Assembly (NCBI GenBank): GCA_963806185.1
Contig: CAWDXE010000007.1
Span: forward strand, 352,001-416,000
Reading direction: 5' to 3'
Length of the DNA: 64,000 nucleotides
DNA from: an uncultured candidate division Zixibacteria bacterium
Lineage (GTDB): Bacteria; Zixibacteria; MSB-5A5; GN15; FEB-12
The notes beneath the pieces are model-generated. The model was not told where the DNA came from and did not search any database. It saw nothing but the letters and a program-made list of their open reading frames with translations. Position numbers and translations under genes: made by a program. Position 1 is the stretch's first letter, and every line of letters begins with the position of its first letter. This document shows, one piece after another, positions 6,299-43,327 of this stretch.

Positions 6299-8113
6299 TC
6301 AGCCCTGCTTCTTTGGCTGGCCCTCACCAGTGATCAGACGGCCGTATTCCTTCGGTGACGAGAGAATCTTGACTGCCTGAGTGACGGCATTGTCGGTTTT
6401 GAGAATCACGTTCTCATACACCGCCCGTTCGCCTCCCATCGAGGCGAGAATCTCGCGCTGAATAGCCTTCTTGATGTACGGGATCGACCGGTCGAAATCG
6501 CGATCCTTTTCAACAGCTATTTCCGCTTCGAGTGTCTTAATGGTGCCCTCAAAGGCGGTCTCGGCATTCTCGTCCTTCACCGTCTTCTTCAGATCGTCCG
6601 CCGCTGCCTCAAGTTCGGTCTTATAGTCGAACTTCTTGCTCTTGATAAACTGACGGAACTCGCTCACCATGGCGTCCGAGACCTCCATGTCCGGCTTCAC
6701 GTCGGGATGCTTCGCGACGTAGTCGATGGCAAAGTCGAAGAAGAGGGATTGACGATACAGGTTGATCTCAATCGTCTTCCACGTTTCGCGATCGATGCTG
6801 ATATCGGGTACAATACCCCCACCGCCGTAGACCATACGGCCGCCGTTGGTGTAAAATACCTCGCGGTCCTTTACCGACAGAGTATCCGCAGCGCTGTCGG
6901 CTTCCACATCAGCATGGACGGCGCCCGGTTTGTCTTTTCCCTGACGGTCGGGCTTCTGAATGCAGCGGCCGGAAGGTACGTAGTACTTGGCCGTGGTGAG
7001 CTTCAATGCCAGCGAACCGTCGTTGTTGATCGGGAATATCTGCTGTACCAGGCCCTTGCCGTAGGTCGTATTGCCGAGGATGATCCCTCGGTCCCAATCC
7101 TGAATGGCGCCGGCGACGATCTCCGAGGCGGAAGCCGTGCCCTCGTCGACCAGGATCACCAGCGGCTTCTCCGGGAAGAGCGGCGGACGTTCGGAGCGGT
7201 AGTGACGTTCCGTCTGCTGATCGCGTCCGCGCGTATAGACAATTTCATTCCCCTGATTGAGGAAGAGCTCGGCAGTTTCTTTGGCTTGATCAAGCAGCCC
7301 GCCGCCGTTGGAGCGAAGGTCAAAGATGAGGCCGGTGATATTCTGTTCGTTCAGCTTGCCGATGGCCTCGCGCAATTCCGCGGAGGTTTCCTCGGCGAAC
7401 CGGGAAAGACGAACATAACCGACAGTCGTCCCCGGAACGACGCCGGAGTAGTTGACCGATTTCAATTCGATGACGGCTCGCTCAACACGAAAATCGAGGG
7501 GCTCGGAAAGTCCGGCCCGCTTAATCTTCAGGTCTACCGAAGTGCCCGCCTCGCCGCGCATCAGCTTCGAGGCATCGGCGGAAGCCATACCGTCGGTCGA
7601 CTTGCCGTTGATTTCGAGAATCAGATCGCCGGCGCGCAACCCCTTGCGGTAGGCGGGCGTCCCTTCAATCGGGGAAATAATGAGGATGTGGTTGTCGCGT
7701 TCGTCGATCTGCATCCCCAGACCTTCGTACTTGCCATGTGTGCTTTCCATAAGCTGGTCATACGCCGTCCGCTCCATGAGCACGGAAAAACGGTCCAGTC
7801 CTGAAAGCATGCCATCGATGCCCGCCTTGACCAGTGTTTCCGGATCGACGTCTTCCATGTAACTCGAGCGGATTTCAAACGCGGTCTGGGTCAGTTTTCG
7901 GATGTTGCGCAGGAAGGTATCGTTGCGGTTTTCGCCGGGTGGGGTTTCAGGTTGTGCCGGGCGGTTCTCGTCCAGATTTATATGGACTGTATCGGCCCAT
8001 AGGACCGGTTCGCTCTTGCTCGAGGTTTGGGTCGCGTCACCGGGGCCGGCAAACCAAATCAAGGCCAGAGCGAAAACAGTGATGCCGAAGACTCGTACGC
8101 CGTAGCGCATCAT
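6299..8113 (-). CDS. ctpA: S41A C-terminal processing peptidase (CtpA/Prc) with PDZ domain
   Basis: EGLGM, PDZ, GYVRLSRF, DLRSNGGG, TASASEIVAG, TYGKGLVQ, TTAKYYVPSGRCIQ, GGGIVPD. Confidence 0.92.
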   Translation of the reverse strand: MMRYGVRVFGITVFALALIWFAGPGDATQTSSKSEPVLWADTVHINLDENRPAQPETPPGENRNDTFLRNIRKLTQTAFEIRSSYMEDVDPETLVKAGIDGMLSGLDRFSVLMERTAYDQLMESTHGKYEGLGMQIDERDNHILIISPIEGTPAYRKGLRAGDLILEINGKSTDGMASADASKLMRGEAGTSVDLKIKRAGLSEPLDFRVERAVIELKSVNYSGVVPGTTVGYVRLSRFAEETSAELREAIGKLNEQNITGLIFDLRSNGGGLLDQAKETAELFLNQGNEIVYTRGRDQQTERHYRSERPPLFPEKPLVILVDEGTASASEIVAGAIQDWDRGIILGNTTYGKGLVQQIFPINNDGSLALKLTTAKYYVPSGRCIQKPDRQGKDKPGAVHADVEADSAADTLSVKDREVFYTNGGRMVYGGGGIVPDISIDRETWKTIEINLYRQSLFFDFAIDYVAKHPDVKPDMEVSDAMVSEFRQFIKSKKFDYKTELEAAADDLKKTVKDENAETAFEGTIKTLEAEIAVEKDRDFDRSIPYIKKAIQREILASMGGERAVYENVILKTDNAVTQAVKILSSPKEYGRLITGEGQPKKQG

Positions 8114-31986: not shown

Positions 31987-32011
31987 GGAACCGAACAGCC
32001 TTTTGGTTGTT
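31987..32011 (+). promoter_or_regulatory. ECF-type promoter upstream of trxA
   Basis: GGAAC-N17-GTT, like the SigH/SigR thiol-stress promoter pattern. Confidence 0.4.
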
Positions 32012-32056: not shown

Positions 32057-32389
32057 ATGAGCAAACCGATAGATGTCACCGACGAATCATTCGAAAAAGA
32101 AGTGATTCAATCCGACCGTCCAGTCATCGTGGATTTCTGGGCCACTTGGTGCGGCCCGTGCAAAATGATTGCGCCTATTCTGGAGGAAGTCGCTCGCGAT
32201 ATGGGCGACCGCGTAAAAATCACCAAGCTCGATGTCGATTCGAACAATAGAACCGCCGGCAAATACAACATCATGTCGATCCCGTCATTGCTGTTTTTCC
32301 GCAACGGCCAGGTGGTGGATCAGGTCATTGGCGCGATTCCCAAAGCCCAGATTGTCCAGCGTCTCGAAAAAGTGCTGACCGCCGTCTGA
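32057..32389 (+). CDS. trxA: Thioredoxin
   Basis: DFWATWCGPCK, IMSIP; GGAGG RBS. Confidence 0.97.
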   Translation: MSKPIDVTDESFEKEVIQSDRPVIVDFWATWCGPCKMIAPILEEVARDMGDRVKITKLDVDSNNRTAGKYNIMSIPSLLFFRNGQVVDQVIGAIPKAQIVQRLEKVLTAV

Positions 32390-32403: not shown

Positions 32404-32432
32404 GGCCAGGCTCAACACTTCCTGGCCTTTTT
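32404..32432 (+). terminator. Rho-independent terminator after trxA
   Basis: GGCCAGG-N10-CCTGGCC-TTTTT. Confidence 0.7.
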
Positions 32433-32580
32433 ATTGGCGTCAGGACCCTCTCGGGACGGTCAACCGGCTCTGCCATCTCTTTACGGAACTTTTCGACCCG
32501 CCCCATTCTTACAGAGATGGGCTCCTTCGGGAGCTCCGTGAAACAGGCGGAATGACCGACAATCAGCACTGGAACAACCG

Positions 32581-32766
32581 ATGGATTTTTACGACATACT
32601 CTTTCTCCTGGCCTTTGTGGTGGCTTGGCTCCTGTTGGTCACCAAGGTGTTGCCTCGTTTCGGCGTCGGCACCTGAGTGACTCGAGATTGCCGGCTCCCG
32701 GTGGGAGAGATCAAAAAGAAATCTGAGGCCCCGGAATCGCCCGATTCGCCGCCCAAAGCGAATTAA
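32581..32766 (+). CDS. Small single-TM protein with in-frame UGA (candidate selenoprotein), not in the ORF track
   Basis: MDFYDILFLLAFVVAWLLLVTKVLPRFGVGT-[TGA 32674]-VTRDCRLPVGEIKKKSEAPESPDSPPKAN-TAA; CTCCC-GGT-GGGAG hairpin at 32695-32707. Confidence 0.6.
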
Positions 32767-35824: not shown

Positions 35825-36571
35825 ATGGCGTCCAAAAAGAAACTGCAATCGGCGATCGCAATCTGCATACAGGAACCCACCGAAGACGGCTCCTCCATGG
35901 ATCTCGGCATCATCAAGGGAGACGATCTGCGCTTTCTGCATCAGGCGTTCATTACCGATACCATTATCAGCGCGCTGGCGGTCGATGCCGACGTGCGCGC
36001 GTATTACATCGACGCACCGGATCGCAAACGCTTTGTCAAGATTATCACCGAATATCTCAGCAACAAGCTGACCGGCGAGAAACTCGAACACTTCCAGCAC
36101 CGCTACGCCGGTATTGAACTGCCCAAGGAAGGGTGGGGGAGTCGCATCGAGACCGCCTTCAAGGATTGTTTCGCGCAGGGGTATACCAACGTTCTGGTGC
36201 TGGGCAGCCGCACGCCGACCGTCACGCCGCATCAGATGAAGACCGCTCTCAAGATGCTCAAGGAGAGCGATGCGGTCTTCGGCCCGACCCCCGAGGGGCG
36301 ATATTATGCCATCGGCATGTCCGGCGCCTGTAAGGTCAACCTGTCCGAATTCGACTGGAAGTCGGCCAGCATCTATCACGACGTGTCCGGGGCGTTCACG
36401 CAGGAAGGCTTGAGCTGGGCGGAGCTGGAAATCTGGTATGCGGTCGAAGGCCCCGATGAACTCGAGTTCCTGGCCCGGGATATCAATCAATTCCGCTTTG
36501 AGGGTGACGAAGCAACCGCCCACGAAACCGAGAAGGTCATGGAGCGGATCATCGCCCGCCTGGAGATGTAA
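35825..36571 (+). CDS. DUF2064/TIGR04282-like glycosyltransferase-fold protein, divergent
   Basis: WGSRIETAF..F..GY..VLVLGSRTPTV..DAVFGPTPEGRYYAIGM..WYAVEGPDEL. Confidence 0.7.
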   Translation: MASKKKLQSAIAICIQEPTEDGSSMDLGIIKGDDLRFLHQAFITDTIISALAVDADVRAYYIDAPDRKRFVKIITEYLSNKLTGEKLEHFQHRYAGIELPKEGWGSRIETAFKDCFAQGYTNVLVLGSRTPTVTPHQMKTALKMLKESDAVFGPTPEGRYYAIGMSGACKVNLSEFDWKSASIYHDVSGAFTQEGLSWAELEIWYAVEGPDELEFLARDINQFRFEGDEATAHETEKVMERIIARLEM

Positions 36572-42045: not shown

Positions 42046-42681
42046 ATGAACGAGAACGGTCGTAAGACGAAGAGTGGTATGTCGAAAGAGACAGAGAAAG
42101 ACATCGATTTCGAGCTTATGCGGGGTATTCAGAACGGCGACATGGTCGCGTTCAATACCTTGGTGGGCCGGTATAAAGATCGCTTGATGAACGTGATCGG
42201 ACGCATGCTGTCGTCGACCGAAGAAGCCGAGGACATCGTGCAGGAGACATTCGTGCGCGTCTACCAGCATCGTCAGTCGTTTAACTTCCAGCACTGTTTT
42301 TCGACCTGGATTTACACGATCTGTCTGAACCTGGCGCGGAACGAATTGCGGAAGCGGAAGAAGTTCAAATTTTACGATATATCCGAGATGCAGGGGAATG
42401 AGGCCGAGTTTGCGGTCGAGCCGAAAGTGCCGACCCGTCTGCCGGAGGCCATCAACGCCGCCATCAAGGATTTGCCGGAGAAGTATCGCGTCGCTTTCAT
42501 CCTGCGCGACGTACAAGAGATGCCGTATGAAGAAGTAGCCCAGGTTCTCGGAGTACCCCTGGGGACAGTGAAGTCGCGCGTCAATCGGGCGCGCCTCATT
42601 CTTCGCGGAAAGTTGGAGCCAAGAATGGAGGAATACCATGCGTTGTCAAAAAATACGCTCCTTGCTGTCAGCGTATTGTAA
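42046..42681 (+). CDS. ECF RNA polymerase sigma factor (RpoE/SigW-like)
   Basis: AEDIVQETF, FSTWIYTI, YEEVAQVLGVPLGTVKSRVNRAR. Start may be 42046 or 42079. Confidence 0.93.
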   Translation: MNENGRKTKSGMSKETEKDIDFELMRGIQNGDMVAFNTLVGRYKDRLMNVIGRMLSSTEEAEDIVQETFVRVYQHRQSFNFQHCFSTWIYTICLNLARNELRKRKKFKFYDISEMQGNEAEFAVEPKVPTRLPEAINAAIKDLPEKYRVAFILRDVQEMPYEEVAQVLGVPLGTVKSRVNRARLILRGKLEPRMEEYHALSKNTLLAVSVL

Positions 42682-43327
42682 TGACGAGCTGGTTGGTCAC
42701 AAACAGTTAAAGATTCGTGAACATCTGTCGGTTTGTCCGGCCTGTCGCAAAGAGGAAAGCGTGTATCGCTCCCTGGCGCAGGCGAGTAAAGTGACTCCTC
42801 AGTTAAGCACGACATCTGACTTTAACGCCCGCCTGCTCGAGCGAATCGCTCAGGAACGCTTTGCGGAGACCCGCACGAAAGCGTACATGCCCAAGGCCGC
42901 TCCGCTGGTACAGTGGCGGCACGTGGTGCCGGCGCTCTCGATGGTGGCGGCGGTGTTGCTGGTGGCGTTTGTCTGGTTGCCCTCGGGTCAGTTGACGCCC
43001 GGCTCGGCGAATATGCAATACAGTCAGAATGACGATTACATCACCGCCCAGCCGGTGAACAATCCGAATATGACCGCCAATCTGCGGCACAACTGGTCGT
43101 TGGACGGCCAGATGGCGCAGACGGAACGATTCAGTCGCTTGTCCAATTCACTTACCAATATGAATGGCTTCGGTAACTTGTACCTGACGACCGCGCTGAG
43201 CCGTCAATCGCGCGAGATGTGTCCGCGGTTGCCGCATGGAATCGTCTTTTACCGGATCAAGCCGGTTATCCGGTCGTACAATCAGCCCGGTGAAACCAAC
43301 GTCAAGGAGGATCAGCGAGTTTACTAA
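42638..43327 (+). CDS. Zinc-finger (zf-HC2) transmembrane anti-sigma factor
   Basis: C..IRSLLSAY..EHLSVCPAC (HxxxCxxC), single TM, overlaps the sigma gene. Confidence 0.88.
   Translation: MRCQKIRSLLSAYCNDELVGHKQLKIREHLSVCPACRKEESVYRSLAQASKVTPQLSTTSDFNARLLERIAQERFAETRTKAYMPKAAPLVQWRHVVPALSMVAAVLLVAFVWLPSGQLTPGSANMQYSQNDDYITAQPVNNPNMTANLRHNWSLDGQMAQTERFSRLSNSLTNMNGFGNLYLTTALSRQSREMCPRLPHGIVFYRIKPVIRSYNQPGETNVKEDQRVY

Follow-up and report, generated by a model that had tools for sequence, protein, structure and literature searches.

A predicted single-helix membrane selenoprotein encoded beside thioredoxin in Zixibacteria

The locus and its predicted product

The window, that is, the whole stretch of DNA that was analysed, comprised 64,000 nucleotides from the genome of an uncultured Zixibacteria bacterium. 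A small open reading frame (the micro-gene) was located between trxA and a rhomboid gene, which was followed by the genes for a receiver-domain protein and then for a CcdA/DsbD-type membrane protein. The features of the locus, all on the + strand, were as follows.

31987..32011, +: SigH/SigR-like promoter motif GGAAC-N17-GTT upstream of trxA
32057..32389, +: trxA, a WCGPC thioredoxin (TIGR01068 over cut-off), the proposed reductant
32404..32432, +: terminator-like hairpin with a U-run after trxA (-12.7 kcal/mol)
32485..32511, +: candidate ECF-sigma promoter of the micro-gene (GGAAC, 18 nt, CTT)
32581..32766, +: coding sequence of a 61-aa single-pass membrane protein, selenocysteine (Sec, U) predicted at residue 32
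32587..32658, +: single transmembrane helix, codons 3-26, predicted N-out, C-in
32674..32676, +: in-frame TGA, predicted Sec32
32689..32691, +: Cys37 (U+5), candidate resolving cysteine
32695..32707, +: bacterial SECIS-like upper stem-loop CTCCC-GGT-GGGAG

The reading frame began with an ATG at 32581, reached the TGA as codon 32 and ran through 29 further sense codons to a TAA at 32764-32766, exactly as given in a preliminary description of this DNA, which had also noted the single transmembrane helix. The segment before the TGA consisted of this hydrophobic helix followed by LPRFGVGT, and the ATG sat 31 codons upstream of the TGA in most homologs. Membrane anchoring, proposed at the same time, was supported by a peak 19-residue hydropathy of 2.72 for the 61-aa protein and by AlphaFold, which gave a single confident helix at residues 3-26 and a low-confidence tail with no structure. 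The N-side flank of the helix was acidic and the C-side flank basic in all groups; by the positive-inside rule, Sec32 is predicted to face the cytoplasm. The protein collection contained a 31-aa product ending at the TGA (P0003), so gene callers do truncate this frame as had been expected.

Pfam and NCBIfam searches with the protein, and with alignments of 28 and 69 members, returned no family, and the PDB yielded no structural relative by fold search and no relative by sequence search. The ESM Atlas contained one unnamed cluster of 123 members with a score of 0.90. A lipoprotein was ruled out by the lack of a basic N-region and a lipobox. A thioredoxin-fold UxxC/CxxU oxidoreductase was rejected as well, given one helix plus coil, a four-residue spacer and no structural or sequence match. 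The members of PF11127 (YgaP-like) and PF12669 (FeoB-associated Cys-rich membrane protein) are likewise small and membrane-bound, with a cysteine close to the membrane, but the micro-protein matched neither at the family cut-off. For PF11127 the profile score was too low and the two-helix hairpin with a conserved CP was lacking, and for PF12669 just 4 of 69 members matched, with an E-value of 0.019 or worse. An alignment of the YgaP-like C-terminus to the family profile covered 17 columns at a probability of 59%, which is a weak lead to homology.

Conservation of the in-frame TGA

An open frame of at least 14 codons was common after the ordinary TGA stops of this genome (453/730); the case that the post-TGA frame and the hairpin exceed chance rests on the homologs rather than on this one sequence. 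A set of 89 distinct homologs was drawn from the loci with the best scores plus 40 distant ones chosen by hand; L052 and L097 were dropped for want of a family match. As related genomes are not independent, the counts below overstate the number of events.

Matches to the protein were found in 44 of 61 related genomes, with the TGA lying within 43 of the 45 matches, and selA was over the cut-off in 57 of these 61 relatives. The family profile matched 158 of 285 Zixibacteria genomes, and the TGA was present in 150/150 of the Zixibacteria matches listed. Among the 89 distinct homologs, the Sec column held TGA in 88 and TGG in one. The exchange for TAA or TAG, which the preliminary description had named as an outcome that would count against Sec, was never seen. 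The homolog with TGG kept the downstream peptide. At L096 (G031:C32, near 6562-6711), where TGG occupied the Sec column, the LPxxG had decayed, the downstream Cys was retained along with part of the hairpin, and the genome still had selA. Three loci titled Ignavibacteriaceae or Calditrichota (L044, L046 and L049) were counted within Zixibacteria on account of their gene order, which is that of this phylum; their titles look mislabelled, and the protein of L049 was identical to that of a same-family relative.

The frame after the TGA stayed open for at least 14 codons in all 88 TGA homologs, while the other two frames closed earlier in 20/88 and 59/88. The terminal stops varied (TAA 40, TGA 29, TAG 19), and the tail past U+11 was poorly conserved. 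A Cys at U+5 occurred in 56 of the 88 (TGT 30, TGC 26) and was absent from 32; 27 had no Cys at all in the eight residues after U. The U-x4-C motif proposed earlier thus stands for this gene, which has Cys37, but it is not obligatory in the family.

The genome encoded tRNA-Sec (selC), selA, selB and selD, all over the cut-off, so the search for Sec machinery that had been recommended recovered every component. The selA and selB genes were adjacent, and selD had an in-frame TGA and a hairpin of its own. In a second phylum, that of a Thermoanaerobaculia genome and presumably Acidobacteriota, the profile matched 75 of 251 genomes; the unpublished genome G313 enters these tallies solely as a count. 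The TGA was present in 71 of 76 matches, the remaining five being short N-terminal matches, and selA was found in 69 of 70 TGA-form genomes in comparison with 130 of 181 others.

Forms with Cys in place of Sec, another kind of evidence that had been asked for, were frequent. A profile search of the protein database returned 327 proteins at E <=0.001, and the best 150 of these had Cys at the Sec column in 88 cases, ended there in 36, had W in 17, other residues in 7 and could not be parsed in 2; the W probably represents TGA read by another code. Cys at +5 accompanied 83 of the 88 Cys-form proteins among these best 150, and some Cys forms had runs of extra Cys. In metagenome DNA, a pattern ending in TGY gave 40 matches, of which 29 were judged by eye to be family members with TGC or TGT and 11 to be chance matches; with 8 near-duplicates removed, 21 Cys forms were used.

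The SECIS-like hairpin

The G-led loop of the hairpin started 23 nt after the UGA in this gene and mostly 22-23 nt after it in the family, within the 16-37 nt of a bacterial SECIS. Covariation among 28 homologs supported a 7-pair helix, in which 23 cells had changed on both sides; shuffles gave 10.2 +/- 3.0, and 0/500 of them attained that level. When the register was slid by -1, the covariation score was 0.328 vs. 0.286, but the paired cells were 64% vs. 76%. RNAalifold returned a weak 3-pair register one column off. A hairpin test was built from the published limits on loop, stem and spacing in the available text of PMC13188914, together with a stem energy of <= -4 kcal/mol. It was passed by 73 of 88 TGA homologs vs. 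12% of shuffles, and in wider sets by 100/117 TGA forms, 6/21 Cys forms and 141/730 ordinary TGA stops of this genome. The hairpin therefore tracks the TGA form, and the SECIS assignment made from the single sequence gains the comparative support that it needed.

In family f3 (L040 and L101-L110), the hairpin lay 35-37 nt after the UGA in 11/11 loci while the Cys stayed at U+5 in 9/11, which indicates that the RNA and the protein are under separate selection. These hairpins are at the far end of the spacing range published for SECIS elements and constitute a natural test of the reach of SelB.

Taken alone, the hairpin of this copy did not exceed shuffles in stability (z -1.0 and -0.21), and the minimum-energy fold of 32677-32720 was a competing hairpin. 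The pair probability of the SECIS in this copy was 0.17-0.43, and it was 0.75 if at least 15 nt after the UGA were hidden; a ribosome covers about 11 nt according to the accessible part of PMC4513850. Given this cover and the competing hairpin, recoding in this copy may be inefficient. Compared with selenoprotein genes of the E. coli fdhF type that use SelB and a SECIS (model in PMC13188914), this copy differs in the competing hairpin and in having no folded domain around Sec. An Rfam search at the locus gave nothing except one chance match (E 1.3).

Relation to listed selenoproteins

Judged by eye from its sequence, the micro-gene is a member of a predicted, functionally unstudied selenoprotein family and not of a new one. 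The novelty implied by the preliminary description was thus overstated, as specialist lists have carried such sequences since 2008. In the parts of these sources available to us, such sequences stand under '#Unknown' in the selenoprotein sequence file of the 2008 GOS paper (PMC2398784), a 2016 table lists 'Unknown (Geobacter lovleyi)' with 5 organisms (PMC5029168), and Data S1 of deep-Sep (2025) places six such sequences among 'known' selenoproteins (PMC12013277). We read these labels as one family on the strength of the 2008 and 2025 sequences, the 2016 row being a name and a count. The name was absent from the 119-family table of a 2026 review (PMC13188914), from deep-Sep Table S1 (PMC12013277) and from the accessible text of PMC9312934 and of the BSepDB paper (PMC13326102). 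No functional study of the family and no proposed function was found in a search of largely open-access literature.

Compared by eye, the listed 'Unknown (Geobacter lovleyi)' sequences likewise had one W-containing hydrophobic helix, then LP[RK]xG[VI]x[TS], U and usually a C five residues on. They were ~45-70 aa long, comparable to the 61 aa here. The single helix and the LP[RK]xG[VI]x[TS] directly before U were both found in this gene; the Cys five residues after U was present here as Cys37 and variable in Zixibacteria, where about a third of the copies had no second Cys, unlike the usual pattern. The profile matches P0011, P0019, P0021 and P0022 closely resembled the listed sequences.

What is new is the range in Zixibacteria and the link to a putative thiol-stress promoter motif, so that the gain concerns range and function rather than discovery. 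Against 5 organisms in 2016 and 6 sequences in 2025, the family was found here in 158/285 Zixibacteria genomes and 70/251 genomes of the second phylum. Present in more than half of the former and more than a quarter of the latter, it may be a common selenoprotein omitted by catalogues, having no Pfam or NCBIfam model and being shortened to 29-31 aa when genes are called. A first testable function, namely TrxA-dependent reduction and induction by thiol stress, follows from the links to thioredoxin and to the promoter motif, and at 61 aa the peptide lends itself readily to synthesis and assays.

Gene neighbourhoods

The association with thioredoxin noted for this locus held across three groups: a thioredoxin gene lay within 1.7 kb in 75 of 87 Zixibacteria, 9 of 30 second-phylum and 12 of 21 Cys-form loci, upstream or downstream of the micro-gene depending on the locus. 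Of the 12 Cys-form loci with thioredoxin, most look like one clade, with a CcdA-thioredoxin fusion directly after the micro-gene. A Cys-form cluster (L164, L167, L173 and L180) had the order atypical thioredoxin (CAPC), DUF6132, micro-gene and CcdA-thioredoxin fusion. One database protein, a single sequence on a single contig, fused the micro-domain to thioredoxin.

In the second phylum, 21 of 30 loci had no thioredoxin within 1.7 kb, and YgaP-like, zinc-ribbon and RND genes were commoner neighbours. A YgaP-like gene, recognised by sequence cluster, was upstream in 18/30 loci and abutted the start of the micro-gene in 9; all six of those tested matched PF11127. A zinc-ribbon gene was downstream in 17/30, an AcrB-family (RND) gene upstream in 12/30, and a cysteine desulfurase gene was found in 7/30. 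Genes for ArsR, DUF302, OsmC, DsrE and rhodanese occurred in other second-phylum loci.

The rhomboid gene followed directly 3' in 73 of 87 Zixibacteria loci, and there was none in the 30 second-phylum loci, the 21 Cys-form loci or the distant Zixibacteria families L081-L092. No transporter gene adjoined the micro-gene in the 87 Zixibacteria loci. At L081-L083, L099 and L100, an ORF of ~66 aa with CxxC...CxxC and no Pfam match separated the micro-gene from a CoA-binding gene upstream, with OsmC following in four of these loci.

Promoter motifs and the terminator-like hairpin

The motif GGAAC-N17/18-GTT stood upstream of trxA in 70 of 75 loci, as against 0.6% of shuffles. A related motif, GGAAC-N17/18-NTT (mostly ATT and without the G of GTT), preceded the micro-gene in 21 of 46 loci, as against 1.2% of shuffles. 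A CoA-binding gene lay between trxA and the micro-gene in 29 loci, 24 of them spaced by <=18 nt. The 46 loci without this gene included the present one, and in 36 of them a terminator-like hairpin followed trxA. This hairpin makes simple co-transcription of the micro-gene with trxA doubtful in this genome. Across the phylum, the micro-gene would seem either to be part of the trxA operon or to have a related motif of its own. A sigma-70 and terminator scan missed both elements that the comparison of loci showed. The strict trxA-type motif was found within 700 nt upstream in none of the 30 second-phylum and none of the 21 Cys-form loci.

A motif was considered SigH/SigR-type if it had a GGAAC or GGAAT -35 and a GTT -10, which is an actinobacterial consensus applied here to Gram-negative Zixibacteria. 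In the accessible text of PMC10012870 and PMC5430705, the SigH/SigE consensus of Corynebacterium and mycobacteria matches the GGAAC/GTT motif, and the corresponding regulons include thioredoxins. The GGAAC-N17-GTT motif occurred 83 times in this genome, not above estimated chance, and 20 of the occurrences lay before an ORF, that of trxA included. Seven other motif-preceded genes were checked and encoded two superoxide dismutases, an Rrf2 regulator, a PLP enzyme, YceI, a UbiA-family protein and a Na/H exchanger; the sites of the dismutases, Rrf2, the PLP enzyme and YceI were G000 C7:1005705, C8:74171, C4:127140, C7:47920 and C7:996975. We take the PLP enzyme to be CysK-like, and the ABC ATPase encoded behind the Rrf2 regulator is presumably SufC-like. 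The motif suggests that this uncultured Gram-negative phylum has a thiol-stress regulon of actinobacterial style. The genome had 14 sigma-70-family matches over the cut-off.

Possible function

Read-through of the TGA as Sec was the central proposal of the preliminary description and, with SelB binding the hairpin, is now very likely on comparative grounds, namely the TGA kept in 88/89 homologs, the Cys homologs, the covarying hairpin and the Sec machinery in the genome. It is very improbable that translation truly ends at the TGA to yield a 31-aa membrane peptide and that the hairpin is an RNA element of some unrelated kind. The unremarkable hairpin of this one sequence, its competing fold and the poor conservation beyond U+11 would suit such a peptide. 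However, a stop would not account for a column that shows no drift to TAA or TAG in 89 homologs and holds Cys and one TGG instead, for a Cys37 retained via both codons, or for a hairpin that tracks the TGA form, which itself tracks selA.

As to the role of the product, our preferred explanation is a membrane-tethered, cytoplasm-facing selenol, which thiol or peroxide stress would oxidise and the neighbouring TrxA would reduce again; predicted from sequence, it has roughly even odds (about 0.5). SelB would bind the hairpin 3' of the UGA, and Sec would be inserted to give a 61-residue one-helix membrane protein, in which the conserved LP-x-x-G turn would hold Sec at the membrane surface. Thiol or peroxide stress would oxidise Sec32, which would then form a selenenylsulfide with Cys37 where Cys37 exists; in homologs without it, the oxidised Sec might be resolved directly by TrxA or by a small thiol. 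Expression of the micro-gene would rise with that of trxA under a SigH/SigR-like ECF sigma factor, and selenium shortage would lead to termination at the UGA and an inactive 31-aa anchor.

The eukaryotic selenoproteins SELENOK and SELENOS also span the membrane once and have their Sec in a disordered tail on the cytoplasmic side, and the Sec-Cys bond of SELENOS is reduced by the thioredoxin system. The micro-protein may work in a similar way. This is an analogy without any claim of homology. Unlike here, Sec in SELENOK and SELENOS is near the C-terminus and the SECIS is in the 3' UTR.

Other roles were considered for the same protein. It might act on sulfane sulfur (persulfide or polysulfide) at the membrane, as a carrier or in detoxification, in concert with a YgaP-like, rhodanese or cysteine desulfurase protein, while thioredoxin would only strip the sulfur off; this overlaps the preferred explanation and differs from it mainly in the substrate. 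The second-phylum neighbours speak for it (YgaP-like in 18/30 loci, cysteine desulfurase in 7/30, and the ArsR, DUF302, OsmC, DsrE and rhodanese genes), as does the weak profile similarity to the YgaP-like C-terminus. However, apart from OsmC in four loci, none of these genes adjoins this copy or recurs in the 87 Zixibacteria loci, and we regard this role as rather unlikely. Somewhat less likely again is a Sec/Cys pair that binds a soft metal, a metalloid or an Fe-S cluster in a membrane sensor or an efflux accessory subunit. The RND and zinc-ribbon genes of the second phylum, the extra-Cys runs of some Cys forms and the weak matches of 4/69 members to the FeoB-associated family (best E 0.019) would fit, whereas a lone Sec, without a second Cys in 27/88 homologs, would be a poor metal site, and no transporter adjoins the micro-gene in Zixibacteria. 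Rhomboids cleave single-pass proteins, and the micro-protein is single-pass with a rhomboid gene directly 3' in most Zixibacteria loci; it could be a substrate or regulator of that protease, cleavage freeing the Sec-bearing tail as a signal. The absence of rhomboid genes from the second-phylum loci, the Cys-form loci and L081-L092 makes this improbable.

The thioredoxin-reduced selenol, our preferred explanation, has points against it too: Cys37 is absent from 32/88 homologs, the SECIS of this copy has a competing fold, and a terminator-like hairpin separates trxA from the micro-gene in 36/46 loci. Moreover, the motif before the micro-gene is without the G of GTT and occurs in 21/46 loci only, and in the second phylum 21/30 loci have no thioredoxin within 1.7 kb, the trxA-type motif being absent there (0/30) and from the Cys-form loci (0/21). 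A more elaborate joint version, in which a bare helix with one selenol acts as a membrane-surface antioxidant within a SigH/SigR-like regulon, is doubtful as a whole. It would have the thiol-stress regulon common to a Gram-negative phylum and Actinobacteria, and a terminator that split trxA from the micro-gene, which would then have regained a promoter of the same kind. Recoding of the UGA would act as a selenium switch, toggling between an inert 31-aa anchor and the active 61-aa form.

Other genes in the window

Positions 35825-36571, after ccdA and before a creatininase-family gene, encoded a DUF2064/TIGR04282-like glycosyltransferase that scored below the NCBIfam cut-off. At 42046-43327, an ECF sigma factor gene, itself at 42046-42681, preceded a gene for a zf-HC2 zinc anti-sigma factor and, as judged by eye, a PDZ/trypsin-like ORF. 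This locus is ~10 kb from trxA, and its sigma factor is one candidate for the sigma of the putative regulon.
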